DNA of 64,000 bases from the NCBI GenBank assembly GCA_963664705.1, contig OY761556.1, forward strand, positions 2,688,001 through 2,752,000, given 5' to 3'. This stretch comes from Acidobacteriota bacterium (GTDB taxonomy: Bacteria > Acidobacteriota > UBA6911). A model generated the notes under the pieces. That model did no database searches, had not been told where the DNA came from, and saw nothing but the letters and a program-made list of their open reading frames with translations. Both the position numbers and the translations under genes were made by a program. Position 1 is the first letter of the stretch. The number at the start of each line of letters is the position of its first letter. Shown piece after piece: positions 28 to 64,000 of this stretch.

Positions 28-1692
28 CTATTCCAGATAAGCCCCCTTATCGGCGCTTGTTACGTATTTTGCGAAATGCGCGAGATACCCTCTGGTGATC
101 TTCGGTTCTGGCCTTTTCCAGGATTTCAGCCTTTGCTGAATATCCTCATTGCTCAACTCAATGGTCAGCTTTCGCGAAGGAATATCTATTTCGATCACAT
201 CGCCATCTTGCAGAATTGCAATGGGTCCTCCGTCCATTGCCTCAGGTACAATATGACCCACGCATGGTCCGCCTGAAGTCCCCGAGAATCTTCCATCGGT
301 AATGATGGCAACGGATCTATCAAGCCCCATATCTACGAGGAGCCAGGTGGCCATTACCATTTCCCGCATGCCCGGCCCACCCTTCGGGCCTTCGTACCGG
401 ATCACCATGACATCTCCCTCTTTGACTCTGCCGGAAAGGAGAGCCTCTATGCAATCCTCCTCCTGCTCAAAAACTCTCGCCGGCCCTCGATGGGTGTGCA
501 TTTCAGGCCGCACCGCAGTCTGTTTAACGACGGCAGTTCCCAAGTTGCCCTTCAGGATGGCAATGCCGCCATTCCGGCCCTTCGGCCTCGAAAGCGGGCG
601 TATTATTTCCTCATCCCTGATATCCGCCATCAACAGATTTTCGGCTACGGTTTTTCCGCTTGCGGTGATTGCCTCTGTATCAAGAAGAGTCGCCATGGAT
701 TTCATCACCGCTTGCGTGCCACCTGCACGTTCGAAATCCTCCATCAGGTACCTGGAATCAGAGGGCTTGATCTCCATTATCGATGGTGTCTGCCGACTGA
801 TCTCTTCAAAATTATCAAGGGTAAATGGATACTCGAGTTCGTGAGCGATTGCGGGAAAGTGAAGGGTGAGATTCGTCGAACCGCTAGTCGCGCAGCATAC
901 CTTTACGGCATTGGTGAATGCCGCCCGACTCATGACATCGCGGGCTTTGATATTCTTTTCCAGCAACTCCATAACTTTGCGTCCGGCTTCTTCCGCGAGC
1001 TTTTCCAGCGCAGGATCAGTCGCGCACAGAGCGGAGTTGCCGGGCAGTGAAAGGCCCAATGCCTCCGCAGCGATGCACATACTGTTTGCCGTACCCATAA
1101 GGCAGCATGCTCCAGGCCCTGGACACACCGCACCTTCCACTTCACGCAGCTCTTCTCTTGAGATCTTGCCTTGCCGGTGCATGACGAAATACTTACCCAT
1201 GGAAGAACAGTCTAATCTCTCGCCCTTGTAACGGCCCGAAGGCATATACCCCCCGGTGAAAAGGACGGTAGGCAGGTTGCATCGCGCAGCTGCCATGATC
1301 AGACCTGGTACAATCTTGTCGCAAGTACCGATCATGACGGCCGCATCGTAACTTGCATGCTCGATCATCATTTCAACCGAAGCGGCAATCAGGTCGCGGC
1401 TTGGCAGGATATATTTGAAACCCGCGTTGCCACTCCCCTGCCCGTCGCAGGGCGCAAGCACGTTGAAGACAGTCGCCATGCCGCCGGCCTCCTGGATGCC
1501 CCGTTTTACCGCAGCTGCAATCCGGTCGAGATGATAGGATCCAGGCAGTATTTCATTCCATGTATTCGCAATCGCCACCAGAGGCTTTTCAAGGTCTGCG
1601 TCGGTTGCCCCCATCGACTTGAAGAAAACCCTTCGCATATAGTATTGAGGGACATCTGGACTTAATGCTTTGCTTCTCAGTTTTGCACTCAT
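28..1692 (-). CDS. ilvD: IlvD/Edd-family dehydratase (dihydroxy-acid or sugar-acid dehydratase)
   Basis: Motifs PCDG, SRDLIA, TCDKIVPG, GTANSM, YEGPKGGPGMREM and TDGRFSG. Cotranscribed with UxaA-like genes, so a catabolic role is plausible. Confidence 0.9.
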   Translation of the reverse strand: MSAKLRSKALSPDVPQYYMRRVFFKSMGATDADLEKPLVAIANTWNEILPGSYHLDRIAAAVKRGIQEAGGMATVFNVLAPCDGQGSGNAGFKYILPSRDLIAASVEMMIEHASYDAAVMIGTCDKIVPGLIMAAARCNLPTVLFTGGYMPSGRYKGERLDCSSMGKYFVMHRQGKISREELREVEGAVCPGPGACCLMGTANSMCIAAEALGLSLPGNSALCATDPALEKLAEEAGRKVMELLEKNIKARDVMSRAAFTNAVKVCCATSGSTNLTLHFPAIAHELEYPFTLDNFEEISRQTPSIMEIKPSDSRYLMEDFERAGGTQAVMKSMATLLDTEAITASGKTVAENLLMADIRDEEIIRPLSRPKGRNGGIAILKGNLGTAVVKQTAVRPEMHTHRGPARVFEQEEDCIEALLSGRVKEGDVMVIRYEGPKGGPGMREMVMATWLLVDMGLDRSVAIITDGRFSGTSGGPCVGHIVPEAMDGGPIAILQDGDVIEIDIPSRKLTIELSNEDIQQRLKSWKRPEPKITRGYLAHFAKYVTSADKGAYLE

Positions 1693-1701
1693 GTTACCGT
1701 C

Positions 1702-2859
1702 TCAAATATTGGGATTCATTTTGAATATGCTGAAATCTCTCTGATTCAGCCGCTCGGCCCTGGTCTCTTTGCCTGATGCGCAGGCAATTATCTCCTCGAA
1801 AACCCGTTTCCCCGCCTGGGAAATGGTTTCGTTTCCCCGGAGAACCCTGCTTACATCGAGATCCATGTTGTCCCTCATGTTAACGAAGGTGCTGCGGTTT
1901 CCCGTAATCTTGACGACCGGGGCGATAGGAGATCCGCAAGGAGTGCCTCGACCTGTCGTAAAAGCCACAATTTGAGCACCTCCTGCCACCATGGCGGTCA
2001 GCTGCTCGATGTCGTGTGCTGGAGTATCCATGTAGACCAGACCTTTTCTTGCGGGGTTACAGGCATAAGCGATTACTTCCTGGATCTGACTGCTCCCGGC
2101 CTTGTAGATACAACCCAGGGATTTCTCTTCAAGCGTTGTAATGCCTCCGGCGATATTGCCCGGTGAGGGATTGCTCTCTCGTATATTCTGGCCCGACGCG
2201 ATCGCCCTTTGCTCCCACCAAGCAACCGCTTCCACCAGCTGTTTCCCAATTTCCGGCGTTCGAGCTCTTTTCACAAGAAGGTGCTCGGCTCCGATAATTT
2301 CCGGAGTTTCAGAGAGAATTACGGTTCCTCCTTCTGCGACAATCAGGTCACTCGCAATCCCCACAGCAGGATTTGATGACAATCCTGAAGTGTAATCGGA
2401 CCCACCGCACTCTGTACCCAGGATCAATTCGGTAAGCGGTATCGGCTCACGTTCCAATCGAGCGGCCTCATTCAGCATTTCCTTTAGTATCTTTCTGCCT
2501 ACGGCTGTGGTTTTCTTCGTTCCCCTCGTTTCCTGGACTTTTATTACTTCCACCCTTTTGCCGCTGGGCGCAATTGCGTTTGCGATTTCCTCCGGTTGCA
2601 GTTCCTCACATCCATTCCCAACAACGAGAACGGAAAAGACGTTAGGACTCATTCCAAATCCGATAAGCGTCCTTCTCACCAGCGCTTTATCTTCTCCCAT
2701 CTGCCCGCAGCCCAGGGTATTGGGAAGATGAACCGCACCCTTTAATCCTCGCGCTATATCTCGTGCGCAACTCTGCGAGCAGCCAACGCTGGGAATGACC
2801 AGTACAAGGTTCCGCGTTCCCGCTCTCCCATCAGATCGACAGTAGCCATGGAAATTCAT
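1702..2859 (-). CDS. uxaA: UxaA/GarD/SuyB-family dehydratase, large (C-terminal) subunit
   Basis: GYxRxDGRxGxRN N-terminus, ECGGSD, LSETPE, NPSPGNIAGGITTLEEKSLG and FTTGRG. Lacks the SAF domain, which is encoded by the next gene. Confidence 0.88.
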   Translation of the reverse strand: MNFHGYCRSDGRAGTRNLVLVIPSVGCSQSCARDIARGLKGAVHLPNTLGCGQMGEDKALVRRTLIGFGMSPNVFSVLVVGNGCEELQPEEIANAIAPSGKRVEVIKVQETRGTKKTTAVGRKILKEMLNEAARLEREPIPLTELILGTECGGSDYTSGLSSNPAVGIASDLIVAEGGTVILSETPEIIGAEHLLVKRARTPEIGKQLVEAVAWWEQRAIASGQNIRESNPSPGNIAGGITTLEEKSLGCIYKAGSSQIQEVIAYACNPARKGLVYMDTPAHDIEQLTAMVAGGAQIVAFTTGRGTPCGSPIAPVVKITGNRSTFVNMRDNMDLDVSRVLRGNETISQAGKRVFEEIIACASGKETRAERLNQRDFSIFKMNPNI

Positions 2860-3149
2860 GAGGGCTCTCCCTTGGACTGGCTCACCACATTGTGCACATG
2901 GACGTGCTCGCCACGCCGAATCGTTTTCGTGCTCCGGCCTATCATCTCTCCGTATTTAATCACGGCTTCACCCTGGTCAATATGCCTTATCGCGAATTTG
3001 TGGCCGCTGGGGATGTGAGAAATCAACGTTATCTTCTCGATATGTTGTTCTGGCCTAATTGAAACAGTTGTGCCCGCGGGAAGTTCCACCAATGTCACTG
3101 CGACGTTGTCCTGTTCGTTGATAACGATTATTCCCGTACTTGAACGCAT
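2856..3149 (-). CDS. SAF-domain small subunit of a split UxaA/SuyA-type dehydratase
   Basis: DNVAV, IPSGHKFA, VIKYGEMIG and GEHVHVHN motifs. ATG at 3149 follows GAGGGG; 4-bp overlap with the large-subunit gene. Confidence 0.88.
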   Translation of the reverse strand: MRSSTGIIVINEQDNVAVTLVELPAGTTVSIRPEQHIEKITLISHIPSGHKFAIRHIDQGEAVIKYGEMIGRSTKTIRRGEHVHVHNVVSQSKGEPS

Positions 3150-3381
3150 GACCCCTCTCAATAAATATGTTGAGCACGGTCAGTATTTTGGGCCATCCAA
3201 GACAACCATACAAACCGCTCGGGCTATGGACGAAAATACCAGACACATAAGTCCTCCCACATAGCCGCCTCCGTTAACCGATTCTGAAGATGATAATCCA
3301 GAAAGTTAAGACCGCAAGAGTTCTGTTCCACCAATGGAAATTATGGGTTTCTCCCGGACGTTACGCTGATAGAATGAATTA

Positions 3382-3399
3382 TGTCACATCTTTATGACA
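3382..3399. promoter_or_regulatory. Palindromic operator, copy 1: TGTCACA-TCTT-TATGACA
   Basis: One mismatch to TGTCACA-N4-TGTGACA; lies in the divergent intergenic region 3150-3545. Confidence 0.7.
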
Positions 3400-3545
3400 C
3401 AGATCGTGTTAGAGTCGTGATAACAGAAGCATCCTGGACGTAATCGGCTGAAAACATGAGCGACCTGGCGACACCGGCGTTTTTTCCGTCCACGGTCAAC
3501 GCTGTCCCCAAAAAGCATGCTGGCGGCGAAGAGAGGCAATTCCAC

Positions 3546-5162
3546 ATGAAACGAGCTCTTTTATTCACAATGTGCGCAGTTCTTGTATCCGGCTTCTGCC
3601 TGGCACAGGCGCCAGCCCCTGTCACGATTGAGAGTGGATTGGTGCAAGGGACGGTTGAAGACAGCCTGACGGTTTACAGAGGCATCCCGTTTGCTGCGCC
3701 ACCAGTTGCCAACCTTCGATGGCGCGCTCCTCAGCCTGTGGCAAAATGGGATGGCGTGAAGGAAACCACGAAGTTTGCTCCTGCCTGCATACAGGGCATG
3801 ATGATGGGACCCAGCGGCAACGGCCCTGCGCCAAGCGAGGATTGCCTATATTTGAACATATGGAGTCCTGCAAAATCGGCGCGCGATCGCATCCCAGTAT
3901 TCGTATGGATCTATGGCGGTGGGTTTGCCATGGGATCCACTTCGGAAGCCACCTATAGCGGGGAGATGCTCGCCAAAAAGGGAGTGATGCTCGTAAGCAT
4001 CGCCTACCGCGTAGGACAAATGGGATTCTTCGTGCATCCGGAGCTGAGCGCCGAGACCCGAAACCGCGTATCGGGCAACTACGGCCTGCTGGATATGATT
4101 GCCGGCCTCCAGTGGATTCAAAAAAATATTGCTGCATTCGGCGGCGACCCACATCGCGTGACAATCTTCGGAGAGTCGGCCGGAGGAATCGCCGTCAGCA
4201 TGTTGTGTGCTTCGCCTTTGGCCAAAGGCCTGTTCCACGGCGCAATCTCGGAGAGCGGCGGATCGTTCGGACCACCAAGGCCCGCAACCATGCCCGGAGA
4301 GAACATGAAACGGCTGTCCGACGCGGAGCGATCGGGGACAGAAACGCTTAAATCGGCTGGCGTGGCATCCATTGCAGAGGCGAGGAAACTCCCTCCGGAC
4401 AAGCTTTCAGGCAACGGAGGCCGTGGTCCAAGCGGTTCGGCGGCTCGTGGCGGTGGCGGTCCGGCGGGTTTGACCAATTGGCCGATCGTCGACGGCTGGG
4501 CGATTCCGGATGATCAATACAAGCTATATGAATCGATGCGATATAACGATGTGCCAGTTCTAGTCGGCTACAATTCCGACGAGGGCTTGAGCTTCTCTCC
4601 TCCGCGGACGCCTGAAGAATATGTTGCCAATGTGAAGTCCCGATTCGGTCCGTTCGCCGACAAACTCATCGCGGCCTACCCTCCAGGAACAGGAACAGTA
4701 GCCAAGACTGCGCGCGACCTCATGCGCGATGCAGCATTTGGGTGGCAAACTTGGATTTGGGCGCGATTGCAATCAAAAACGGGCAAATCCAAGGTTTTCT
4801 ATTATTACTTTGATCAGCACCCGGAATATCCGGCCGACTCACCGCAGGCAGGTCGCGGATCGCCGCACGGACAGGAAGTGGCGTATGTATTTCGACATTT
4901 GAATCCGAGTCAGAAACCCACCAAATCGGATGAGACGATATCAGAGGCTATGGCTACCTACTGGACAAACTTCGCCAAATCCGGAAACCCCAATGGCACA
5001 GGCCTCCCGGAATGGCCGGCCTTCAGCGATTCCAATCCCACGCTAATGTACTTTGCTCAGACTCCTCATACAGGGCCGGTTCCAAGTGCGGATGCACTCA
5101 AAGTCATGGATCAATATTTCGCGTGGCGAAGGACTCCTGAGGGTGAAGCCTTTGTGAAATGA
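3546..5162 (+). CDS. Secreted type-B carboxylesterase/lipase
   Basis: Signal peptide MKRALL... after GAGAGG; GIPFAAPPV, SEDCLYLNIW, GESAG nucleophile elbow, NSDE acid and SPHGQE His. Confidence 0.92.
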   Translation: MKRALLFTMCAVLVSGFCLAQAPAPVTIESGLVQGTVEDSLTVYRGIPFAAPPVANLRWRAPQPVAKWDGVKETTKFAPACIQGMMMGPSGNGPAPSEDCLYLNIWSPAKSARDRIPVFVWIYGGGFAMGSTSEATYSGEMLAKKGVMLVSIAYRVGQMGFFVHPELSAETRNRVSGNYGLLDMIAGLQWIQKNIAAFGGDPHRVTIFGESAGGIAVSMLCASPLAKGLFHGAISESGGSFGPPRPATMPGENMKRLSDAERSGTETLKSAGVASIAEARKLPPDKLSGNGGRGPSGSAARGGGGPAGLTNWPIVDGWAIPDDQYKLYESMRYNDVPVLVGYNSDEGLSFSPPRTPEEYVANVKSRFGPFADKLIAAYPPGTGTVAKTARDLMRDAAFGWQTWIWARLQSKTGKSKVFYYYFDQHPEYPADSPQAGRGSPHGQEVAYVFRHLNPSQKPTKSDETISEAMATYWTNFAKSGNPNGTGLPEWPAFSDSNPTLMYFAQTPHTGPVPSADALKVMDQYFAWRRTPEGEAFVK

Positions 5163-5231
5163 GTTGTGCAGCGGCGGTACGACTTTTGAGATTTGATTCG
5201 CTCAACAATTGTGGGAATAGGGGAAATTTGT

Positions 5232-7682
5232 ATGAAAACCCAGGTAAACGAAGATTGGCTCAGGGAAATTGACAATCTGGAATTGAGTGATCGAATCCGA
5301 CAATGGCAAAAGGCCATGAAAGCTTGCCCGAGCCAAATTTATGTCGATAGACAAAGACTCGCATTGGAGTCCTGGGTGGAAACAGAGGGCGAGGACATAG
5401 AAATCCGAAGGGCAAAACTATTCAAGAAGATCGTCGAAAATGTCCCAATAAAAATACACGATTTCGATGTTCTGGTAGGACGGCTTACACCGGGGGTTAT
5501 TGGCGCAAGCACAGCAATCGATATTGTGGGGGACTATATTCCTGCTATTTGGAATGATGACGGGAAAATTCGCATTTCAGTAACAAATGATGGGACTTTG
5601 TCTAAGGCGGATTTGGAAATACTGCGAGAGAGCGCCAGCTACTTCCGCGGAAAAACTGCGCCCGATTTGGCGTACAAAGCATTGCGCTCCCTGGTTGGCA
5701 CGTGGGCCGAAGATTACGAGAGTGCAAAGGGCAAGGACCCGGTCTTAAGTTCAGGGATTTTTCCCGGAACAAGCGCAACGGTGATGTGGAAGAAGATTTT
5801 GACAAAGGGTCTGAGAAGCATCATTGATGAGGCTAAGGAACACATAAAAAACTTTGCGGAAAAGCAGCAACACGGCATAGACAAGGTCATATTCTGGCAG
5901 GCAGCCGAGATCGTTTTGGAGGCTGCAATCAACCACGCCCACCGATATGCCACACTTGCGGAAAATATGGCCGAAAATGAGGAAAACACAATTCGGCGCG
6001 ATGAACTAAAAGAGATCGCCAGGATTTGCCGGTGGGTTCCGGAGTACCCGGCACGCACATTCCAAGAGGCGCTTCAATCGCTGGCTATTGTCGGCGTGTG
6101 CAAAAACTTTGAACACCCAATGCACTGTCACCCTCACCTTGCCAGGGCCGACGAATATCTATGGCCATATTTTGAACAGGATGTTAAGGGAGGAAAGCTG
6201 ACTCTGGGAAAGGCCGCAGAGCTGCTCGAAGAGATCATCGGTCGTTGGGGAAGCCAGATTTTTGTTGCGACTTCAAGCTTCCAGCAGACACATCAGATCA
6301 ATTATGGAATTCATAATGTAGTAGTGGGTGGCGTAGATGCGAACGGGAATGAGATATCAAACGAGTTGAGCTATCTCATTCTTCACATTATAGGATTATT
6401 AAGAATGTCTTCGCCGACCGTTAGCCTTCGCTGTAATAAAAACACGCCCGGCTGGCTCCTGGAAAAGGGATTAGAGACCAACACCAAGACAAGGGGCGGC
6501 ATTCCCCTCTTTCAGAATGAAGACCACGTGATCGACAGCTTCGTCCGTGACGGGGTACCGGTAGAGGAAGCCAGGGAGTGGTTCGGTCTCGGATGCGTGC
6601 AGCCTGTCGTCCCATCCAAAGTAAAGCACTCAGGATGCGAGGGCGCCGGAACAGTAAACGTTGCGCTTGTATTGGATTTGGCCCTCCATAACGGAGTGTG
6701 TGCCCTCACGGGCAAAAAGCTGGGCATCGAGACCGGCAACCCGCGCGATTTTAGGACCTTTACTGCCCTATACGATGCGTTTAAGCAGCAGTTTTCATTT
6801 ATTGCAACGAGAACGCTTTGGTTGGCTCGCACAGTCCGCGAGATAAATGAAAAACATCTGCGGCTTCCTTTCATGTCCAGCCTGATAACACAAGGCTGTA
6901 TGGACGCAGGAAAGGACGCTCTATGTCCGGACCCGTCTTTCCACATTTTCGTCATGCAAGATCGGGCAATTGTGGATACAGCAGATTCTCTCATGGCTAT
7001 TAAGAAACTTGTATTTGATGAAAAGAAATTGACTATGGATGAGCTGATGGGAGCGATTGACTCAAATTTCGAAGGCGTAAGCGGCGAACAAATTAGACGC
7101 ATGTGCTTGGCTGCTCCAAAATTCGGGAATGATATTGACGAAGTGGATCACATGGTACGAGACCTGGGCAAATTCACCTCCGGTGTGATTCGCTCGTATG
7201 ACAATCATCCATACAGCAACTATGGCGTCGTGCGGGAAGGTTTGTCGTGGCATTATTTCGGCGGATTGGGAGTAGGCGCCCTTCCCAATGGCCGCAAGGC
7301 AAAGGAACCGCTGAACGACGGCTCCATATCACCCATGCGCGGAGCGGATGTAAACGGTCCCACTGCCGTAATTCGGTCTGCAATAAAGGCAGGATTCGAC
7401 GAAGCACAGGCATCCGTTCTCAACCAGAAGTTTTCACCCTCCGCCGTTCAAAGTCCTGAGAGCAGGAAAAAAGTGGCGGCGTATACAGGTACATTTTTTC
7501 AGAACGGCGGTCAGCACATCCAGTTCAATATAGTGGACACTAAAGAATTGCTCGATGCGAAGACAAACCCCGAGAAATACAAGGATCTGATTGTCCGGGT
7601 GGGAGGCTTTAGCGCTTACTTTGTTCAACTCTCCCCAGAGATTCAGGATGACATCATCCTTCGCACCGAGCACTCGCTTTAA
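5232..7682 (+). CDS. Glycyl radical enzyme (PFL superfamily) of unknown substrate
   Basis: C-terminal HIQFN...LIVRVGGFSAYF glycyl loop (7596-7610) and Cys loop GCVQP (6591-6605); about 816 aa from ATG 5232. Confidence 0.92.
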   Translation: MKTQVNEDWLREIDNLELSDRIRQWQKAMKACPSQIYVDRQRLALESWVETEGEDIEIRRAKLFKKIVENVPIKIHDFDVLVGRLTPGVIGASTAIDIVGDYIPAIWNDDGKIRISVTNDGTLSKADLEILRESASYFRGKTAPDLAYKALRSLVGTWAEDYESAKGKDPVLSSGIFPGTSATVMWKKILTKGLRSIIDEAKEHIKNFAEKQQHGIDKVIFWQAAEIVLEAAINHAHRYATLAENMAENEENTIRRDELKEIARICRWVPEYPARTFQEALQSLAIVGVCKNFEHPMHCHPHLARADEYLWPYFEQDVKGGKLTLGKAAELLEEIIGRWGSQIFVATSSFQQTHQINYGIHNVVVGGVDANGNEISNELSYLILHIIGLLRMSSPTVSLRCNKNTPGWLLEKGLETNTKTRGGIPLFQNEDHVIDSFVRDGVPVEEAREWFGLGCVQPVVPSKVKHSGCEGAGTVNVALVLDLALHNGVCALTGKKLGIETGNPRDFRTFTALYDAFKQQFSFIATRTLWLARTVREINEKHLRLPFMSSLITQGCMDAGKDALCPDPSFHIFVMQDRAIVDTADSLMAIKKLVFDEKKLTMDELMGAIDSNFEGVSGEQIRRMCLAAPKFGNDIDEVDHMVRDLGKFTSGVIRSYDNHPYSNYGVVREGLSWHYFGGLGVGALPNGRKAKEPLNDGSISPMRGADVNGPTAVIRSAIKAGFDEAQASVLNQKFSPSAVQSPESRKKVAAYTGTFFQNGGQHIQFNIVDTKELLDAKTNPEKYKDLIVRVGGFSAYFVQLSPEIQDDIILRTEHSL

Positions 7683-7923
7683 TAACAACCCCCCGGCCCT
7701 TCAGTCCTGGGATATCCGCTGTTCACTTGTTCCTCTGACCAGTGAGAGGCATGCTTTGAGCAGAAAAATGACCAAACCTAATCCCCATGGTATTGAATCT
7801 GTGATTCGAAGCAACTCTAAAGCCGGACACAAAGTCTTGCCTTCCGGCGGCAATGAAACGATCTTGACCAAGGTCGGATTTTTGCCTCCTTTAAGTCCAC
7901 AGCCTATGCGCAAACGAAAAGAC

Positions 7924-55693: not shown

Positions 55694-55769
55694 CCTTGGA
55701 GTGCGGCGCCTTGCCGTCTTAAACAGCCGAAAGGCGGTGGCAAGCCACCGCACTCCAAGGGCTTCGCCT
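55694..55769. repeat. REP-like palindromic element, family A
   Basis: CCTTGGAGTGCGGC...AAAGGCGGTGGCAAGCCACCGCACTCCAAGGGCTTCGCCT. Confidence 0.82.
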
Positions 55770-55786
55770 TCTACGAAAAGCTGTGA

Positions 55787-57238
55787 TTACGGCCTTTTGA
55801 AGGTCCAGCGCGATTTATCGCTCTTAAGGTCAAACTTAGCTAAAGTCGGGGTACTGCGGCCCGCTGCCGTCAATACAAACGGTTCCGGGGAACCGGCAAC
55901 CGATTTGGACATGATTCGGAAAGTGCCGTCAGTGAGTTGATCGATACGCCACAGCTGTTCGGGAGCGCCGGAGAATGACGGAACCGTCACAACATCATTG
56001 TCAGCAGTTGCCGATAAAGCGCGATCGGTACCCGCGACTACAATCTTAAAATAGGGCGACCCGGGATAACCGCCGACATCGGCAACCGGCGTGATTGTCC
56101 ATTTTTGATGGGGGCGAGACATGAAGTCGCCGATGCGCAGATCTATGTTGCCGGACGGCCAGTTTGCTTGCACCTGCGCCAGTTCCTGAGGCGGGACCGG
56201 GGCTATCGGTCCGCTGGGCGGGCCGAAACCTCGCATTCCGCCGGGCATTCGCACAAAATCGACCGCCAGTTCAAGAGCAAATCCGCTGCGCTCTGACTGG
56301 ATCTCATAGGTTCCTCCGACAAAGTTGTCGCCGCCTATTGGCCATCCGTCCTTCCAAAGCAGCGGGCGAATGTCCATTACGCTTCGGCCGCTGCGGTCCA
56401 GGTCGGCCTCGTAATGGCAGGAGAATTTCTGTACGTCATCACCAAGGTCCAACAGGCCAAAGTGGCCCGGCCCTACAAAACGGCCGCTCGCGGCTACCAC
56501 CAGTTTGCCGCCCCCCTTAAGCAGTTCAACGCCCATATTATCCACATAGGGGCCGAGCACATTTCTGGAGCGGCCCACGCGGATATTGTAGGTGGAGTTT
56601 GCTCCATCGCAGCAAGTGCCATGTGTTCCGAGCAGATAATACCAGCCATCCCGATACATCATCGCGGTGGCTTCCATATCAATAGCAACGTTGACAGGCT
56701 GATTGCCGGTTATGCGCTTCCCTGTTTTTGGATCGAGTTCCACTAAGCGGATAAATCCAAAGTAGGTCCCATAACTGAGCCACAGGCGGCTGGTGACAGG
56801 ATCGAGCAGGAATGCCGGGTCAATGGCATCGCAGTCTTCGACGCCGTCACTCGAGGCGACGATGTTCTCATCGTGAAATCCAAATTCGGGCGACTTGGGA
56901 TCGAGGCTTTTTGTCCACACGGTTTTGATGTTGCTGGCGTGCCCTCCGGACATACCTCCGCCGCCCACGGCGTAGGTCACGAGATATTGTTCTCCGATTT
57001 TGATGATGTCGGGAGCCACTCCCCCACCGGGACGCACCGCCCCGCTGTGCCAGGTCCAGCCATCTTCAGATATGAGCCCCCCACCGCCGGTGCCGAAAGC
57101 GAAATACTCACCGTTGCTGAATGCAATGGTCGACGGATCGTGGATATAGGGTTCGCCATTCAGAGCGGGCGCCTGCGCGGACACTGGAGAAATCACTGTG
57201 GCCAGTAACATTGCTGTCGCCAGCAAATTTGATTTCAT
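55787..57238 (-). CDS. Secreted GH43 glycoside hydrolase (arabinanase/arabinofuranosidase-like) with C-terminal ricin-like module
   Basis: IHDPS, APD, AIDP, MEA and GPGH GH43 motifs; Q.W repeats at the C-terminus; ATG 57238 follows GGGAG. Confidence 0.88.
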   Translation of the reverse strand: MKSNLLATAMLLATVISPVSAQAPALNGEPYIHDPSTIAFSNGEYFAFGTGGGGLISEDGWTWHSGAVRPGGGVAPDIIKIGEQYLVTYAVGGGGMSGGHASNIKTVWTKSLDPKSPEFGFHDENIVASSDGVEDCDAIDPAFLLDPVTSRLWLSYGTYFGFIRLVELDPKTGKRITGNQPVNVAIDMEATAMMYRDGWYYLLGTHGTCCDGANSTYNIRVGRSRNVLGPYVDNMGVELLKGGGKLVVAASGRFVGPGHFGLLDLGDDVQKFSCHYEADLDRSGRSVMDIRPLLWKDGWPIGGDNFVGGTYEIQSERSGFALELAVDFVRMPGGMRGFGPPSGPIAPVPPQELAQVQANWPSGNIDLRIGDFMSRPHQKWTITPVADVGGYPGSPYFKIVVAGTDRALSATADNDVVTVPSFSGAPEQLWRIDQLTDGTFRIMSKSVAGSPEPFVLTAAGRSTPTLAKFDLKSDKSRWTFKRP

Positions 57239-57278
57239 GAAAACTCCCAAACAAATAATTTTTGATTCGTGAACCACG

Positions 57279-58097
57279 CTATATTCCAGCGCTATCGAGG
57301 CTCACCGTAATATCCTTGATCGGAATTCCATTCTCATCAATAAAGCGGACGCAGAAATCACTCAGGCCAGGACCGTTGATAACAGCCCCATAAATGATAT
57401 TCGAACCCTTTTTCAGGGTGAGTCGTTTAGATACGACATCATCCATGACCATGCGTCGATCGTCAAACAGTGCGACGGCCTCCTTGCCGTTCACCCACCA
57501 GATGGATGCCGAATTGGAACCTGCGGCCAAACGGACACTCTTGATCTCTTGGGGGCTGTTCACTACCGTCGCCACCCAGAAGATGACGCCATAGGTTGGT
57601 TTGTTCAGGCCATAGGCAAAACGAAATAGTTTGACGTTGAAATCAACGGAATCGAGAGCATGCCATGTCAATTCCTGGTTTCCGATCATTACCTTTTCGC
57701 CGTCCCTGGGAATGACAGCGAACTGGTTGGGGAGGCATTCTGAAAAAGCTTTCCGAATGTAAGTTCCAGTGAATACTGTATTGGTGCGGTTGGGCTTGTT
57801 GATCGGTTCAAGCAGCAGCCACCGCTGGATGAATCCATCCTTGTCCGGACTCTTCGGCTTTGAAGTGGCCGGGCTGAAGTATGACGCGACGCTGCGATCG
57901 GGTGTATCCCCGGGAATTGCGAGTTGAAATCCAGTTATCACCAGGACTGCCACTGCAACATGCAGTCGCTTTGGAATGCAGCAGTTTGCTGCCGCCTTAC
58001 ACAGCCGAATGGCGGTGGCAAGCCACCGTATTCCAAGGGCTTCGCCTGAATCAAACTGAGGTGTAGAGGCCTTTGTAATCTTTATTGTGGGCTTCAT
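57279..58097 (-). CDS. Conserved secreted hypothetical protein upstream of GH43 (start uncertain; REP in 5' region)
   Basis: Protein-like core FIQRWLLLEPI...WHALDS...GSNSAS...RRMVMDD...INGPGLSDFC. A hydrophobic signal-like segment begins near 57965. Confidence 0.65.
   Translation of the reverse strand: MKPTIKITKASTPQFDSGEALGIRWLATAIRLCKAAANCCIPKRLHVAVAVLVITGFQLAIPGDTPDRSVASYFSPATSKPKSPDKDGFIQRWLLLEPINKPNRTNTVFTGTYIRKAFSECLPNQFAVIPRDGEKVMIGNQELTWHALDSVDFNVKLFRFAYGLNKPTYGVIFWVATVVNSPQEIKSVRLAAGSNSASIWWVNGKEAVALFDDRRMVMDDVVSKRLTLKKGSNIIYGAVINGPGLSDFCVRFIDENGIPIKDITVSLDSAGI
57970..58047. repeat. REP-like palindromic element, family A (degenerate)
   Basis: TTGGAATGCAGCAG...ACAGCCGAATGGCGGTGGCAAGCCACCGTATTCCAAGGGCTTCGCCT, closely matching the 55694 copy. 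Confidence 0.78.
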
Positions 58098-59904
58098 AGT
58101 TTTTCTTGAGATCACCCCAGTAAGCATGCGGCATTTCTCCGATCTTCACTTTACCGTCTACCAGCTTAAGCGTGATGAACTTCTTCCATTCAGGCGGATC
58201 CATTTGGGGGTAGTCAATTCTTTGGAAATTCAAATGCCTGCTGCTGGCCTTGCGCGCCAGTGAACCCTCGATAATCAATTGCGAGAACTTGAGTATGTTC
58301 AGATCTTCCAGGCTGCGCAAAAGCTTGTGTGGGTCAAGAGCGTAGAGGCTGGGAACAAAGTCTTTTTCTATTTCCTTGAGCGCATCCAAGCCCATATTAA
58401 GCAGTTTTTCGGTCTTATATTCGCTGCAGAAGTACTGCATCATACGCGCCATTCCCGCATGCAGTTCTTTCCACTCGATTCCTTCTCTCCTTTTAATCGG
58501 AGCATAAACGCGGGCTTTCTCCCGCACAACCTGATCCCTTGATATTGCCGGCCGGCTTGCCTGAGAAGCATAGGCAGCTGCTTTTCTGCCAGCATATCTG
58601 CCGGTAGATGCTGCATAGCCGTGAGCTGCGGGAGCAAACATTTGTTCTCCCGCGGCATACAATCCTTCCAAAGTAGTTCTCAAATCCCAGTCGACCACAA
58701 CGCCGCCTCGGTCATTCATGCTGTCGGGAGAGCGGAAATGGGCCGGCGTGGATCCTTCCAGAAGCGTGTGATTCATCATCAAGTCTTTGGTCGGATCATA
58801 CCCGGCACTCTCAAAAACCCGTCTCATGGCAATTGCCGTCGATTCCTCCCTATATCCCAAATCCCAATTGATCTTCCTCCAGCCCTCTGACATGGCAGGA
58901 AAATCTCCCCAGAAAGGCAAAGAGAGTTCTCCTTTGAGCACCGCATCACGGGCTGCCGCGGTCGATGGCAATGCTCTTCCATTGTCATCGACCGATGGAA
59001 CATTTTCGAAAACTGGATCGTTCCCGGCAGAATCGATTTTATGTTTGTGGCCTGTCCCCAGATAAAGAAGACCTGACTTCTCCGTCAGGGTCAATTCGGC
59101 ACCAGCTCCATAAGCCATCACCGTTCCGTCCCCAGACGCATTGCGCGACCTGAAAGTGGAAATCCCGGCCAACTCTGTATTGAAAACCCAAACGGATCCG
59201 ATTCCGGCTGTGGCCAATACAACTGCCTTCGCCTTGAAAATCATGAATTCGCCTGTTCGCGTATTGATTCCGGTTGCGCCTGCCACCCTGGCACCGTGAA
59301 GACCCTTTTCGTTTAAAAGGCTGGTCCCCGCGATCCTGTCATAAACCTGCACCCCTAAACGCTCGCATTCTTTTTTCAATGCAGGCTTGACCGTCGTTCC
59401 CCAAAAGCGAAGCGAAATACCCTCAGGCTGGTACCTGTCCGCAACGACAATTTTTGTTTTATCGTCCCGTCCCGGAGCGCCAACGAATTCATCATTGGTG
59501 TCCCTCATCTTGGCGCCCATTTTTTCCAATTCCTGAAACGCGTCATAGCCTTCCTGGCATTCGATTGCGTGCCCAATCCCGTTGCTGTAACCGCCCTGAC
59601 TGTCGATAAGGCGCTGGCACTGCACGAATGGATCGACCTTTGCCAACGGACAGGTCATTGGATAGTCCCAGTGATCGCCGCCCGGTCCTCCGGCCCCGCT
59701 TCTCAAAGTAGCCGCCTTTTCGACAAGCGCAACCTTTACTCCCTTTGTCCTGGCCGCACTGAGAGCCGCCCAGCAACCGGCGATGCCGCCGCCGATCACA
59801 AGCACATCCGTCTCGATTTCCTGCTCCTGCTCATATCGTATTTGATAAGGCCACTCCGGAACACGACCGTCATTTTCCATCAATTCATGCCATGAAGAAG
59901 TCAT
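58051..59904 (-). CDS. AprA/succinate dehydrogenase flavoprotein-like FAD oxidoreductase
   Basis: DVLVIGGGIAG, RSGAG, LATAG, GDG, TTLEGLYAAGE and SLARKAS...RIDYP C-terminal domain; no signal peptide. Confidence 0.85.
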   Translation of the reverse strand: MTSSWHELMENDGRVPEWPYQIRYEQEQEIETDVLVIGGGIAGCWAALSAARTKGVKVALVEKAATLRSGAGGPGGDHWDYPMTCPLAKVDPFVQCQRLIDSQGGYSNGIGHAIECQEGYDAFQELEKMGAKMRDTNDEFVGAPGRDDKTKIVVADRYQPEGISLRFWGTTVKPALKKECERLGVQVYDRIAGTSLLNEKGLHGARVAGATGINTRTGEFMIFKAKAVVLATAGIGSVWVFNTELAGISTFRSRNASGDGTVMAYGAGAELTLTEKSGLLYLGTGHKHKIDSAGNDPVFENVPSVDDNGRALPSTAAARDAVLKGELSLPFWGDFPAMSEGWRKINWDLGYREESTAIAMRRVFESAGYDPTKDLMMNHTLLEGSTPAHFRSPDSMNDRGGVVVDWDLRTTLEGLYAAGEQMFAPAAHGYAASTGRYAGRKAAAYASQASRPAISRDQVVREKARVYAPIKRREGIEWKELHAGMARMMQYFCSEYKTEKLLNMGLDALKEIEKDFVPSLYALDPHKLLRSLEDLNILKFSQLIIEGSLARKASSRHLNFQRIDYPQMDPPEWKKFITLKLVDGKVKIGEMPHAYWGDLKKNYEAHNKDYKGLYTSV

Positions 59905-59979
59905 GGTTCATTCTCCCTCCGAGCTCCATTCGGTGTGGATGCCAGATATTCGGCTAATAGATCCAGAACCGGCTGCGAA

Positions 59980-60393
59980 TCAGACCCTAAATATTTCCCC
60001 GGTTGCTTTGCGTTTATAAAATCCTCTCTGTTGAAGCGGCCAATTAAATTTTATGGCGCCCTGCGTTCGACGAGGACACTCATTCACACAGCAGCCGCAA
60101 TACCAGCACTCATCCGGGTGCAAAGTAATCGGAGGCTTTCCCTTTATGGGATTGGGCACATACACATCAATCTGGCATATGTTGACGCATGTATTGCAGC
60201 CGTTGCAGATTTCGGCATTTCGGATGACGGGCCTGTTCGGCGTGGATATGTTGGGTAATATGTACACCTTGTCTTTCTTGTCTTCCGCTCCCTTAAGAAC
60301 CTCGCCGGCCCCTTCGAGCGTTGCCGCGGCACCGGCAACAGCTCCCGCCTTCAAAAATTCTCTGCGTTTCATTGCTGTGCTTTTCTTTTTCAT
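59980..60393 (-). CDS. AprB-like 2x[4Fe-4S] ferredoxin with twin-arginine signal peptide
   Basis: CNGCNTCVNIC and CWYCGCCVNECP clusters; N-terminal KRREFLK followed by an Ala/Gly h-region. Start at 60393 or 60372. Confidence 0.85.
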   Translation of the reverse strand: MKKKSTAMKRREFLKAGAVAGAAATLEGAGEVLKGAEDKKDKVYILPNISTPNRPVIRNAEICNGCNTCVNICQIDVYVPNPIKGKPPITLHPDECWYCGCCVNECPRRTQGAIKFNWPLQQRGFYKRKATGEIFRV

Positions 60394-60583: not shown

Positions 60584-60613
60584 TGTCAAGAAATATGTCA
60601 CATATCTGTGACA
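60584..60613 (-). promoter_or_regulatory. Palindromic operator, copy 5 (TGTCACA-TATC-TGTGACA), with minus-strand TTGACA 6 bp away
   Basis: Palindrome at 60596-60613; TGTCAA at 60584-60589; 30/31 identical to 39542-39572. Confidence 0.82.
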
Positions 60614-60619
60614 CCTTTT

Positions 60620-62143
60620 TTACAATTGATTGTTCCTGGAATACTGTCGGATCAGAAACTCCATGATACTGTCCGGGCCCTTGTTGCTGGCATATGCGCA
60701 GTCATAGAAACACATTTTGTTGGGGTCGTTTTCCGTAAAGGGTTTCCACACGGGCATATCAGACCCATCAGCATCTTTGCCGTTGGGATCGCCAGAACGG
60801 ATGAAATTAGCCCAGTAATTGCACATTGTACGTGCAAGATCGTAGTGCTTGCCGACAAAAGGTCTCCAACACTTAGCCAGCGTCTCAAAAAAGAACCAGA
60901 GGTCCACGGAGTGGAAAGCGCCTGGATTATCCCAACCAGGAATCTCCGGATTGAAGATCCAGTAGTATATCGGTGTCTTTTCGGCCGTCCTGGCTTTTGC
61001 CTTGCCGAAAAGTCTGATCGAATACTCCAGGTAGCTGACACTGGCTTTATGAAGCATTTCCATAATGCTTCCGTTATACGATGCACAAAGCTTAAGAAAT
61101 TCGCCGGATTCGTCACCATAAGCTTCCTGCGCAAACGCTTTGAATGCTTCCGCTGACTTGACCTTGGGCCGGTCGGGAAATTCGGTAGCCGTATGGCCGA
61201 GCATCATGGGAACCAGTTGACATCTGTTTTCCATGAAAAGCTTGTTGGCATCACCGACAATAAACTTGCCATCGATTACCGGACCCCAGAATGCTTTATA
61301 TTCCACCATCTTGTCTCTGAGGAAGACCGCATCCAACCGGCGAGCTTCCGCAAGGGAGGATACGCCCAGAATTTTAAAGAACTCTACGCCGTCTTGCTCA
61401 GCCTCGGTTAAATCCTTTTCACGGTGAAAAAAGCCTCCAGGGTAAGCCGTTATCGTCAGGCCGGAATCGACAATGGCTTTCTGAAAAAGTCCGGCATTCT
61501 GTGGCGACGTCACCTGGGCCATGACGCTGCCTCCTCCCGCAGATTGTCCCCCAATCGTAATGTTATCGGGGTCTCCGCCAAAGGCGGCGATATTCCGTTT
61601 CACCCATCGGGTCCCGAACTGTTGGTCCAGGTGTCCGAAATTTGCAGGGGCTCCGGGACTTTCCGCTGTGATCTCCGGGTGGCAGAGGAACCCAAAGGCA
61701 TTCAGCCGGTAATTGAGAGTGACTACCACAATGCCTCGTCTGGCAATGCGCTCGCCGTCAAATTCCATTTCTGCGGTGTTGCCTTCCTGGAGTCCGCCGC
61801 CGAAATACCACACGAAAACAGGAAGTTTTTCGTTGGCGCTTTTTGCAGGCGTCCAAACATTGAGATGCAAGGAATCCTCATCCATTGCGATGGACGTATC
61901 TACATTCCATTCTCTTGAATAAATGTTTTCCGGGTCCTCTCCGGGAATGTGCTGCATAGAAATCGGAGCGAAATTATATGCCTTCAGAACTCCTTCCCAA
62001 TTGTATGCGGGCTGAGGAGCTCGCCAGCGGTTGCGGCCGACAGGAGGTGCGGCAAAGGGAATCCCTTTGAAGGAGGTGATACGCGGATCAGCAGCCGGCA
62101 AACCTTCAATGGGGCCGTTCTCGACAACAACGCTTCTTAGCAT
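60620..62143 (-). CDS. Cytoplasmic type-B carboxylesterase
   Basis: GIPFAAPPVG, DEDSLHLNVW, GQSAG and GAFHSVDL; ATG 62143 follows AAGGAG. Confidence 0.92.
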   Translation of the reverse strand: MLRSVVVENGPIEGLPAADPRITSFKGIPFAAPPVGRNRWRAPQPAYNWEGVLKAYNFAPISMQHIPGEDPENIYSREWNVDTSIAMDEDSLHLNVWTPAKSANEKLPVFVWYFGGGLQEGNTAEMEFDGERIARRGIVVVTLNYRLNAFGFLCHPEITAESPGAPANFGHLDQQFGTRWVKRNIAAFGGDPDNITIGGQSAGGGSVMAQVTSPQNAGLFQKAIVDSGLTITAYPGGFFHREKDLTEAEQDGVEFFKILGVSSLAEARRLDAVFLRDKMVEYKAFWGPVIDGKFIVGDANKLFMENRCQLVPMMLGHTATEFPDRPKVKSAEAFKAFAQEAYGDESGEFLKLCASYNGSIMEMLHKASVSYLEYSIRLFGKAKARTAEKTPIYYWIFNPEIPGWDNPGAFHSVDLWFFFETLAKCWRPFVGKHYDLARTMCNYWANFIRSGDPNGKDADGSDMPVWKPFTENDPNKMCFYDCAYASNKGPDSIMEFLIRQYSRNNQL

Positions 62144-62249
62144 ACGATTCTCCTTAGAAAACAATGGGTTCAGTGGCGGGAGCGCCGGCGCTCCCATAGA
62201 CGCCCGTTTCGTATTAGATTTAAAATTATGGCACAACAGGAGAGGATGA

Positions 62250-62267
62250 TGTCATAATTATGTGACA
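62250..62267. promoter_or_regulatory. Palindromic operator, copy 6 (TGTCATA-ATTA-TGTGACA)
   Basis: One mismatch to consensus, in the divergent region 62144-62352; followed by a second palindrome TACTTTTGCAAAAGTA at 62274-62289. Confidence 0.72.
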
Positions 62268-62334: not shown

Positions 62335-63516
<1,182 letters not shown>

Positions 63517-63535
63517 ACCTGGACGCCCAAGCTAT

Positions 63536-63586
63536 CCGCTGACTTACGCTGACATATTCAATTCGTGCATCAGCGTAGGTCAGCGG
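63536..63586. repeat. Intergenic hairpin (REP-like family C) or bidirectional terminator
   Basis: CCGCTGACTTACGCTGA...TCAGCGTAGGTCAGCGG between convergent genes. Confidence 0.65.
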
Positions 63587-63613
63587 CTCCTATTTTCCCA
63601 GCCTTAGGACCAG

Positions 63614-64000
63614 CTATTTTACATATGGCATGTAACTGATCGCGCCTGTCTGCGAATTCCGTGAATAATGCTTGGCGAAATTCCACATGATCCCTGCATA
63701 CTCCGGATAGAGCGCGTGGACCAAACCTTCCGTAATACTTAAAGCCATCATTGGAATGCCGTCGCCATTGTTTATGTACCAGGTGGTGTTGCTATATTCG
63801 TTATTGAGTTTGGAATTGTCAATGCGATCCGCCTGGAACCCCGCAATCGGATAAGCATTGAAATCAAAGGCATCGAACTTCTTCATACCATTGAATCCCA
63901 GGAATAAAGGGATTTGCGTCTTGAAGCTCGACCCGATGGTTCCCTTGTCCGGATCGAATGGGCCATTGAGATCATACGTGGAAGTCGTGAACATGATGGG
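63614..64000 (-). CDS. C-terminal part of an esterase paralogous to 53706..55655 (runs off the window)
   Basis: MFTTS.[YF]DL, YPIAGF.ADR, LNNEY and HALYPEYA...KHYSR...TGAI.Y.PY are shared with 53706..55655. Confidence 0.82.
   Translation of the reverse strand, partial: PIMFTTSTYDLNGPFDPDKGTIGSSFKTQIPLFLGFNGMKKFDAFDFNAYPIAGFQADRIDNSKLNNEYSNTTWYINNGDGIPMMALSITEGLVHALYPEYAGIMWNFAKHYSRNSQTGAISYMPYVK

Follow-up and report, generated by a model that had tools for sequence, protein, structure and literature searches.

The stretch analysed here, referred to below as the window, is 64,000 nucleotides of the genome of an uncultured Acidobacteriota bacterium of the UBA6911 lineage (GenBank assembly GCA_963664705.1, contig OY761556.1; genome G000, positions 2,688,001–2,752,000). 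It holds a dense set of esterase-type hydrolases, among which lie six copies of an 18-bp palindrome that we predict to be the operator of a regulon controlled by a GntR-family protein encoded shortly before the window. The source genome is a single contig of 6.89 Mb, 98% complete, with an estimated contamination of 6.18%, and the closest relatives of a window protein are found in other Acidobacteriota metagenome-assembled genomes (84–93% identity; records L015, 93%, and L019, 88%). Coordinates are those of the window unless given as genome positions.

Pfam and NCBIfam scans of 46 and 39 window proteins identified 17 serine hydrolases of eight families, or 19 from 10 families if an SGL lactonase-like protein (12092) and a DUF6282 protein (46378) are included, in agreement with the approximately 18 hydrolases from at least eight families counted in the original prediction. 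Five are type-B carboxylesterases (3456, 9569, 26272, 31695, and 60620), three are of the CBM48-CE1 type (22943, 38222, and 62353), three are PHB-depolymerase-like (49142, 53706, and 63614, the last being the 3' end of a 650-aa gene), and two are CocE/NonD hydrolases (20837 and 24321); the beta-lactamase fold (27932), Abhydrolase_1 (33374), SGNH (36879), and tannase (50101) families have one member each. The nucleophile-elbow serine is kept in all 14 alpha/beta hydrolases tested, the SGNH protein retains GDSI and DxxH, and the beta-lactamase-fold protein retains SxxK. Most of the hydrolases carry signal peptides, as had been noticed: 11 of the 16 scored pass a crude three-rule test, two (22943 and 49142) have a strongly hydrophobic N-terminus and fail one rule, and three (9569, 33374, and 60620) have no signal peptide by this test, while that of the seventeenth was judged by eye only. 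The two clear glycosidases recognized previously, a GH3 and a GH43, are the only ones among the 46 proteins scanned.

The tile corresponding to the window contains 16 of the 94 such hydrolase genes in the genome, compared to a mean of 0.87 over 108 tiles, a contrast that somewhat favors the window because its own proteins served as seeds for three of the eight family lists. The second-richest tile, with eight genes, is the adjoining one, and the best sliding 64-kb interval holds 18 hydrolases against a maximum of nine in 5000 label shuffles. The hydrolase-dense region extends from ~70 kb before the window to ~12 kb past it. A second, weaker hydrolase-rich region occurs at genome positions 5.75–5.95 Mb (13 genes per 200 kb, with one copy of the palindrome carrying 1 mismatch).

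The palindrome, TGTCAC-N6-GTGACA, was found through a short repeat at which public contigs of this DNA broke. With at most one mismatch it occurs six times in the window (3382, 15366, 39555, 47394, 60596, and 62250) against an expectation of 0.06, a number reached by none of 100 shuffles; all six copies are intergenic and five lie between divergent genes. Twelve perfect copies are present in the genome as compared to 0.11 expected, and no other hexamer-arm palindrome with this 6-bp spacer is as over-represented. When one mismatch is allowed, there are 25 copies at a spacer of 6 versus 5–9 at spacers of 3–5, 7, and 8, and 17 of the 25 fall within genome positions 2.617–2.764 Mb, a 146-kb region that includes the window. 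Each of the 21 strong copies is intergenic, and 14 have a TTGAC box 6–7 nt away, with a TAGYHT-like –10 box often recognizable by eye 18 nt beyond it; this –35/–10 spacing would put the site at roughly –43 to –60. For some copies, similarity runs on over the adjacent promoter. A position weight matrix (PWM) yielded no further strong site, although its count is not independent because the matrix was built from 21 of the sites. A generic promoter and terminator scan of positions 26000–40400 gave no excess over shuffles.

The same arrangement recurs in related genomes. In 33 loci from 12 relatives, picked by site position alone out of 40 fetched (seven that were widened for homology being excluded), 27 of 47 sites have TTGAC, 24 of them at exactly 6 nt and three at 7 nt. 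The first genes beside the relatives' sites have their best match in the source genome inside 2.61–2.77 Mb in 51 of 64 cases, although this interval is 2.3% of the genome. Of 29 other genomes of the genus, 22 contain the strict pattern, which is absent from 21 genomes representing 10 other genera of the family and from 16 genomes of the class; a reversed-pattern control had no occurrence in the genus. The palindrome stays upstream of orthologues in relatives in which the gene order has been shuffled.

Taking a run to be same-strand genes separated by gaps of at most 200 bp behind a site, site-led runs take in 12 of the 17 hydrolases of the window, as well as the ABC importer, the GH3 and GH43 enzymes, a carboxylesterase–glycyl radical enzyme (GRE)–flavoprotein run, an AprAB-like pair, and the DUF6282–DHDPS genes. 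Thus, the coupling of esterases to redox enzymes that was originally proposed from their proximity is supported by a shared palindrome upstream of both kinds of run, retained before orthologues. Operator copy 1 (3382–3399; one mismatch) precedes, on the plus strand, the carboxylesterase COest1 (3456–5162; signal peptide, GESAG motif), the GRE (5193–7682), and an FAD_binding_2 flavoprotein (7591–9372; true start probably near 7900), and it is retained before COest1 orthologues in at least six other genomes. Copy 2 (15366–15383; perfect, with TTGACA 6 nt downstream on the plus strand) leads a CUT1-type ABC importer consisting of a binding protein, two permeases, and two ATPases (15463–20793, plus strand), whose gene order and operator are conserved in relatives, followed after 43 bp by the CocE/NonD hydrolase S15a (20837–22891, plus strand). 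Copy 3 (39555–39572; perfect, TTGACA 6 nt downstream on the minus strand) leads a minus-strand run (31695–39502) of the esterase CE1b, the SGNH protein, the Xyl3A-like GH3, the Abhydrolase_1 protein, and COest4. Copy 4 (47394–47411; perfect) lies between the DUF6282 gene and an MFS transporter. To one side are DUF6282, which has an amidohydrolase fold and HxH, and two DHDPS/NAL-family lyases with the invariant lysine (44246–47250, minus strand), and to the other are the MFS transporter, an alpha/beta hydrolase, and the tannase/MHETase-family esterase (47479–51684, plus strand). Copy 5 (60596–60613; perfect, TTGACA 6 nt downstream on the minus strand) leads a minus-strand run (53706–60393) encoding an AprB-like ferredoxin, an AprA-like flavoprotein, an uncharacterized 282-aa protein, a GH43 with a ricin-type domain, and a PHB-depolymerase-like hydrolase. 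Copy 6 (62250–62267; one mismatch) separates COest5 (60620–62236, minus strand; no signal peptide) from the CBM48-CE1 esterase CE1c (62353–63516, plus strand). The 3' end of the 650-aa, second PHB-depolymerase-like hydrolase closes the window (63614–64000, minus strand); its gene is preceded by a second AprAB-like pair and by an operator at genome position 2756144.

The remaining features of the window are interspersed with these runs. At the left edge are an IlvD/Edd-family dehydratase and a split UxaA-type dehydratase (GD_AH and SAF domains; 28–3161, minus strand), and positions 1–3161 had no match in the five relatives tested. COest2, which has no signal peptide (9569–11005, minus strand), is followed by secreted DUF8021-like, SGL lactonase-like, and triple SnoaL proteins (11210–15265, minus strand). 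The esterase CE1a (22943–24157, minus strand) has no operator upstream, and neither does the CocE/NonD hydrolase S15b (24321–26174, plus strand), whose orthologues adjoin an operator in two relatives. Between CE1a and S15b, positions 24140–24320 form an AT-rich divergent promoter with TGCAT/TTGCA repeats and no strong operator, which may bind another regulator. COest3, the beta-lactamase-fold esterase, and a secreted beta-helix protein (26272–31414, minus strand) are separated by a 280-bp gap from the run led by operator copy 3, on whose other side is a secreted SnoaL protein (39623–40138, plus strand). A divergent pair of UGSC-domain genes (40377–44179) has no in-frame UGA and no operator between them, and an FGE-domain protein (minus strand) and a DUF8021 protein (plus strand) share the interval 51726–53634, again with no operator. 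The secreted DUF8021-type proteins (11210–12055 and 52750–53634) have 24–27 paralogue matches in the genome. An REP-like palindromic element, with up to 34 BLAST matches genome-wide, occurs at 44178–44245, 51690–51725, 55690–55770, and 57990–58047, between convergent genes or within runs. An Rfam scan of the window gave no match; ARAGORN reported an unassigned tRNA-like match at genome positions 2,597,966–2,598,055, 20 kb before the first operator.

Sites outside the window add further classes of genes. Two TonB receptor genes with an operator and a –35 box lie 35 kb and 7 kb before the window (genome positions 2648837 and 2677116–2680616, the latter on the minus strand), and a TonB receptor is the first gene beside a site in three relatives. 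No TonB receptor or SusC/D match was found among the 46 window proteins; the apparent lack of a receptor, noted when the window was viewed in isolation, is an edge effect. Other site-led genes encode more esterases, a Zn-dehydrogenase, URO-D-like proteins, an aromatic-acid-symporter-like MFS protein, and FAD oxidoreductases that by eye have twin-arginine-type leaders (genome positions 1137k, 2646k, 4775k, and 1128k). The most recurrent members over 17 relatives or loci are an uncharacterized 238-aa protein, the regulator, a CE1 esterase, carboxylesterases, an FAD oxidoreductase, a tannase, and an ABC binding protein. A cassette of sucrose-phosphorylase-like, MFS, ceramidase-like, and PfkB genes occurs twice in the genome, at 2,617k–2,622k, where it has two operator sites, and at 5,083k–5,091k.

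The candidate regulator is a 315-aa GntR-family protein encoded on the plus strand 5.8 kb before the window (genome positions 2681267–2682214; L008:13267–14214). The top-scoring copy of the palindrome lies 240 bp upstream of its gene, and the palindrome likewise precedes the GntR gene in eight relatives (≥55% identity) and in genome G019. An orthologue (51–75% identity; frameshifted in G017) is present in 16 of 24 genus genomes, all 16 of which have sites, and of the eight genomes without an orthologue, six are siteless and two have one site. This co-occurrence is significant (Fisher p=2e-4), with the caveat that related genomes are not independent and some are incomplete. The N-terminal winged helix matches PF00392 above the cut-off and is closest to YtrA/YvoA-type proteins. 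For the ~230 aa that follow, no solved relative was found, and a language-model search (Atlas) gave a lead to PF27163 only (score 0.91, 20% of cluster members). GntR operators follow the rule NyGT-Nx-ACNy, those of the YtrA subfamily having widely separated GT and AC (PMC4494728), and the palindrome, written as T-GT-CAC-N6-GTG-AC-A, fits this rule. The sites described in PMC2018728 differ from the palindrome and are shorter. Other regulators of the region (TetR at 2653k, LacI at 2654k, and GntR-FCD at 2657k) were considered, and none has the operator directly upstream. We conclude that the GntR protein is probably the binder of the palindrome and that this one nearby regulator likely switches the whole set. 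A GntR gene paralogous to the candidate is located downstream of a TonB receptor gene at genome positions 4766079–4772050. As to a possible separate regulon of this paralogue, the receptor promoter contains a related palindrome, TGTTTC-N6-GAAACA, of which there are only two copies genome-wide, and three identical short palindromes lie between this GntR gene and the receptor.

The hydrolases of the window are old paralogues, from families that expanded across the UBA6911-type genus. Type-B carboxylesterases give 2–22 matches per genome in all 24 relatives examined, and tannases number 3–13 per genome in the 24 genus relatives and 15 in the source genome, as compared to 0–6 in 16 genomes of the class. 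We considered a tandem duplication of the five window carboxylesterases and rejected it: their best paralogues are 32–46% identical, the best match of three of them lies elsewhere than in the window, and a quick tree scatters the five over separate parts. The region does not look like a recent or foreign island. Its GC content is 0.520 against a genome median of 0.534, its tetranucleotide distance is mild (rank 12 of 107 tiles), and orthologues of its genes are ~70–90% identical across the genus. The rate of strand switching, examined as a sign of mosaicism, is ordinary (rank 39 of 107).

Orthologues of the window genes cluster in the same neighborhoods of relatives, in a different order. In stretches fetched around the matches, nine of 13 testable neighbor pairs are kept in G043 (400 kb) and four of nine in G014 (340 kb). 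The kept pairs all belong to the ABC operon, the UGSC–DHDPS–DUF6282 cassette, or the flavoprotein–COest2 pair, and the GH3–SGNH and SGNH–CE1b pairs are broken in G014. Synteny in relatives is found as co-location and not as gene order, the link between the genes being the shared predicted operator.

The redox enzymes differ in how closely they are tied to the esterases. The GRE has an intact RVGGF glycine loop, in agreement with the consensus RVxG[FWY] (PMC13450708), and a GCVQ cysteine loop. The residues CVQ lack the glutamate that belongs to the CxE motif in 1,2-eliminases (GD, PD, CutC, HypD, and IslA; PMC13450708), and all its equivalog scores are below cut-off. No activase gene is present in the window; of the four in the genome, the nearest is ~80 kb upstream. 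None of 29 relatives has an orthologue of this GRE, nor was it seen between COest1 and the flavoprotein in any other genome; in 27 of the 29 the best match (56–61% identity) is the orthologue of a GCVY paralogue located at genome position 4683k. A different GRE adjoins the same esterase and flavoprotein genes (COest1, COest2, and the flavoprotein) in G043, G024, G006 (with an activase), and G005, so the link to a GRE recurs. The GCVY enzyme (genome positions 4683002–4686470; L070–L089) is a single-copy GRE found, usually with an adjacent activase, in 27 of 29 genus relatives with otherwise varying neighbors. A tie between this enzyme and esterases was examined and dismissed, the activase being the only steady neighbor in 20 loci and no operator occurring there at a PWM score ≥17 (one copy had 1 mismatch).

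The window flavoprotein belongs to the fumarate/urocanate reductase (flavocytochrome c) superfamily, which has about ten paralogues in the genome. It occurs in seven of 29 relatives and abuts COest1, COest2, or both in four of the seven, and its best NCBIfam match is the vinylphenol reductase VprA (175 versus a cut-off of 600). The AprA-like protein, which has eight paralogue matches in the genome, is not an APS reductase as its name might suggest, its score to TIGR02061 being 93.7 against a cut-off of 641.75 bits. The window flavoprotein lacks a signal peptide. The description of the redox modules as cytoplasmic is doubtful for the AprAB-like pair because its AprB-like ferredoxin begins with a leader of the twin-arginine type (TAT_signal, E=1e-5), which two relatives retain. 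Of the modules proposed to be linked to the esterases, the flavoprotein and AprAB-like runs do have an operator, but the particular GRE of the window has no orthologue in 29 relatives and the UGSC pair has no operator.

The UGSC–DHDPS–DUF6282 cassette is kept as a unit, and it also occurs in Dehalococcoidales at 56–75% identity, where it adjoins CoA-transferases and a radical enzyme. Structure models of its proteins support superfamily assignments only. DUF6282 was tried as an esterase, and its modeled amidohydrolase fold gave tied Foldseek matches to hydrolases, lactonases, and decarboxylases; for this reason it was left out of the esterase count. The DHDPS-like pair was likewise tried as PhdJ/NahE-type hydratase-aldolases, but many DHDPS/NAL members tied at Z 22–25 in the fold search, with PhdJ at rank 16, and the pair was left unassigned. 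The UGSC domain has 35 matches in the genome, 31 of which contain a single in-frame TGA, likely encoding selenocysteine, and it occurs 8–45 times per genome in the 24 genus relatives as compared to 0–1 times in 16 genomes of the class. The two window copies are among the four that are TGA-free, and TGA-free copies recur beside DHDPS-like genes in relatives. ARAGORN found three tRNA-SeC candidates in the genome. Radical enzymes beside the DHDPS–UGSC cassette (L025:9614–12115 and L026:11156–13657, both plus strand) have RVASY, with serine for the radical glycine, and an activase next door; they resemble the seryl-type aminoacyl radical enzymes of PMC11528403, and the cassette may hint at their pathway.

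With regard to substrate, several enzymes resemble those acting on decorated xylan. CE1c, which has a GLSMG motif and the two-domain CBM48-CE1 architecture, matches 6RZO over residues 29–386 (E=1.7e-145), and 6RZO is the ferulic acid esterase wtsFae1A (PMC8040265); CE1b aligns with CE1c over both domains (32%). The GH3 scores 832 bits on Xyl3A, under the cut-off of 1250, the GH43 is arabinanase-like, also below cut-off, and the SGNH protein, with 7TOG as its best match in the PDB, resembles xylan acetylesterases. A ribulokinase in the region scores above its cut-off. An aromatic-acid side is plausible, given the tannases, an aromatic-acid:H+-symporter-like MFS protein (below cut-off) that lies beside sites, and a benzoyl-CoA pathway encoded elsewhere in the genome. 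The tannase at 50101 has the CS-D-HC active site of the MHETase type, with GCSTGG and GHC aligned to MHETase; in the comparison with the lid residues that bind terephthalate, residues 353–399 did not align to MHETase. Near the regulator gene is a pair encoding a CoA-transferase III and a 2-hydroxyacyl-CoA dehydratase. The genes at genome positions 3,815,000–3,831,000 (L090, L091), 1.08 Mb away and with no operator, look like a class II benzoyl-CoA reductase cluster: Oah and Had, both above cut-off, are joined by a Dch-like hydratase, an AOR-family protein, and HdrA-like and NuoF-like genes.

These observations modify the view that extracellular enzymes attack the ester-linked substituent instead of the sugar. 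An extracellular location is not supported, and a periplasmic one is simpler because of TonB import in a diderm cell. The exclusion of sugar is too strong, since a sugar/polyol-type ABC importer, a Xyl3A-like GH3, a GH43, and CBM48-CE1 esterases belong to the same predicted regulon; the regulon seems to provide for both sugars and acids, and the simplest site for this is the periplasm, following import by TonB receptors. Lignin–carbohydrate esters are not favored as the target, as the three CE15-like (PF22244) genes of the genome are at 223k, 3210k, and 6003k and none is in the region. Backbone-cleaving glycosidases are scarce across the family UBA6911, and benzoate degradation is described for the genus UBA6911 (bioRxiv 10.1101/2021.04.09.439258); the low glycosidase count of the window is thus a lineage trait.

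We consider it very probable that the esterases, importers, and flavin enzymes of the 146-kb region form one regulon of the GntR protein, and we hold with moderate confidence the fuller reading, based on sequence comparisons, that this regulon serves to import and de-esterify decorated plant-derived fragments. According to this model, a GntR dimer would bind the palindrome, centered ~51 bp before the transcription start, and a small molecule bound by its C-terminal domain would switch the genes, whether the protein acts as an activator or a repressor, either of which may be the case. TonB receptors would bring oligosaccharides that are acetylated or esterified with aromatic acids, along with related acyl esters, into the periplasm, where signal-peptide esterases acting with GH3 and GH43 would release acetate, aromatic acids, and sugars. 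The ABC importer would take up sugars or polyols and the MFS carriers acids, and the co-regulated flavoproteins, GREs, and lyases would process the released pieces without oxygen. With an operator for each small transcription unit, genes could be reordered freely, and new paralogues, such as the extra GRE, could be added to the regulon by inserting behind a site that is already there.

A number of observations weigh against this account. The regulator has a 40%-identical paralogue in the genome (4766k) that may be the binder instead, as may another protein, and only genomes G009 and G021 tell the orthologue from the paralogue. G015, G016, and G018 have the regulator with just one strict site each, as many as are found in two genomes without it, and the effector domain lacks a solved relative. 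Five of the 17 hydrolases lie outside tight operator-led runs (two are siteless and three are past gaps of 204–280 bp), the UGSC pair is siteless, and neither the nearby GH10 gene nor the benzoyl-CoA genes carry a site. As for the substrate, no enzyme reaches a curated equivalog cut-off for xylan or aromatic activity, and the type-B carboxylesterase, CocE, and tannase families are promiscuous. The nearest solved relative of COest1 is labeled a fumonisin B1 esterase (E=9.8e-84), the ABC binding protein is closest to a sorbitol binder and not to an oligosaccharide binder, and the SGNH protein has GDSI in place of GNSI, the block-I signature of FjoAcXE-type acetyl xylan esterases (PMC9105624).

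Two alternatives would do away with a regulon altogether. A chimeric or mis-assembled contig, raised as a possible flaw in the original prediction, is suggested by the contamination estimate and by the junction at 39544–39563, where public contigs overlap by only 20 nt and which no listed contig bridges; short-read contigs end here, at a 40-nt repeat around operator copy 3. The sequence on either side is nevertheless matched with no differences in public runs, which may be the source sample itself: positions 1–20000 and 38000–39563 are collinear in one 54,523-nt contig of run X1, and positions 39544–57995 match a 28,172-nt contig. Run X5, from a second study, covers the matched stretches in short pieces only. 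GC skew is continuous, and in relatives the orthologues of genes on either side of the junction are found together. An apparent polymorphism at 55007–55536 was discounted, as the differing letters stem from a paralogous gene further along the same contig. The assembly looks sound, and we give an artifact almost no credence. The palindrome might instead be a scar of recombination or of a mobile element that drives the shuffling, with the cluster being paralogues that accumulated passively in a plastic region. Such a scar could account for the strongly shuffled gene order, the contig breaks at copy 3, and the similarity that extends over adjacent promoters, but not for the fixed 6-bp spacing to the –35 box, the strictly intergenic position, the retention before the same orthologues as their neighbors change, or the co-occurrence with the GntR gene. 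No integrase or transposase match was found among the 46 window and 78 flanking proteins, and we regard this explanation as very unlikely.

Two other alternatives accept the palindrome as an operator and differ in what the regulon is for. It may be a broad physiological regulon, for carbon starvation or the catabolite control of scavenging genes, in which unrelated esters and amides share a switch and no substrate. The mixed membership (sucrose-phosphorylase-like, URO-D-like, DUF8021, SnoaL, CocE, and GRE proteins) is in keeping with this idea, as are the lineage-specific genes behind sites (IlvD–UxaA–SAF and GRE) and the quite different neighbors of the UGSC–DHDPS–DUF6282 cassette elsewhere. 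A global regulator would, however, hardly have just 21 strong sites in 6.9 Mb with 17 of them in one region around its own gene, or be missing along with its sites from G011, G013, and G020 (estimated to be 96–99% complete), and most hydrolase genes elsewhere in the genome are siteless; we judge this idea improbable. The purpose of the same regulon may also be the respiration of aromatic esters, close to the original idea, with freed hydroxycinnamic and benzoic acids reduced as electron acceptors by partly Tat-exported flavoproteins and sugars as a side benefit. Gut Eggerthellaceae, which reduce cinnamates with flavin reductases, provide a precedent (bioRxiv 10.1101/2022.12.26.521950). The operator-led flavoproteins with twin-arginine-type leaders, which recur beside sites in relatives, point in this direction, along with the expansion of tannases in the genus, the symporter-like MFS, the CoA-transferase III and 2-hydroxyacyl-CoA dehydratase pair near the regulator, and the VprA match of the window flavoprotein. 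That match is far below its cut-off, though, and the protein has no signal peptide; cinnamate specificity evolved on at least four occasions and so is not predicted by sequence (bioRxiv 10.1101/2022.12.26.521950); and relatives repeatedly have the sugar-type ABC importer and GH43 behind sites, with GH3 behind a site here. We consider aromatic-ester respiration a rather unlikely purpose. We are equally hesitant about an extended version of TonB-fed de-esterification, in which a GntR subfamily would run ~20 esterases and exported flavin reductases, the freed aromatic acids would be respired or radically transformed in the periplasm, and the region would be a freely shuffled pool of cassettes held together by the operator.

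The preferred reading, a GntR regulon for the import and de-esterification of decorated plant-derived fragments, has parallels in known systems. The carbohydrate utilization (CUT) loci of Xanthomonas and Caulobacter scavenge plant-derived compounds by means of a TonB-dependent receptor, an inner-membrane transporter, carbohydrate-active enzymes, and a regulator encoded locally (PMC1790865). The first three features occur here as the receptors (outside the window), the ABC importer and the MFS transporter behind operator copies 2 and 4, and the GH3, GH43, CBM48-CE1, and SGNH enzymes. The candidate regulator is the GntR protein, whose effector domain is unmatched to a solved relative. Unlike CUT loci, which are small and mostly syntenic among relatives (PMC1790865), the present region has ~17 operator copies spread over 146 kb, esterases predominate in it over glycosidases, flavin and radical enzymes are part of it, and its gene order differs from species to species. 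Xylan polysaccharide utilization loci (PULs) of Bacteroidota likewise employ CBM48-CE1 esterases, Xyl3A-like GH3, and GH43 on decorated xylan (PMC8040265), but here there is no SusC/SusD pair, the receptors are of the acidobacterial type, the regulator is a GntR protein, and the predicted regulon has almost no backbone-cleaving enzyme. No SusD-family match was found among the 46 window proteins (E<=1e-4) or 78 flanking ones (E<=1e-10), and the original observation that the island is unlike a classical PUL stands.

As for the regulator, its YtrA/YvoA-like winged helix, the palindrome with distant GT and AC, and the site before its own gene recall the YtrA and PlmA subfamilies (PMC4494728). In the 315-aa protein the C-terminal domain is ~230 aa as compared to the short ~50 aa of YtrA, PlmA is described as cyanobacterial only (PMC4494728), and the regulon predicted here is large and catabolic. 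The multiple flavoproteins of the fumarate/urocanate-reductase superfamily, some with export signals, resemble the arsenals of anaerobic Eggerthellaceae (bioRxiv 10.1101/2022.12.26.521950), but they number about ten paralogues instead of tens to hundreds and are predicted to be co-regulated with esterases. The scarcity of backbone glycosidases, sugar use, and benzoate degradation agree with the description of family UBA6911 (group 18 Acidobacteria), to which the accession prefixes of records L015 and L019 are also assigned there; the sections of that paper drawn on here describe no esterase expansion, cluster, or regulon, and the word "esterase" occurs once in its main text (bioRxiv 10.1101/2021.04.09.439258). 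We found no earlier description of the operator, the regulator, or the regulon in the literature searched, which left out most subscription papers, RegPrecise, and preprint supplements.

A seemingly random pile of hydrolases thereby becomes a testable unit, with one operator, one candidate regulator, and a defined gene list, in an uncultured lineage whose role in the turnover of plant matter is open. The predicted regulon offers a functional handle on orphan families, such as DUF8021, DUF6282, the AprAB-like pairs, and the GCVQ GRE, and its esterases, including MHETase-family members and carboxylesterase paralogues, make up a compact pool for enzyme screening. The region is also a clear case of a neighborhood held together by regulation and location while gene order has been lost. 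The effector of the GntR protein would name the substrate of the regulon and suggest how to enrich the organism.

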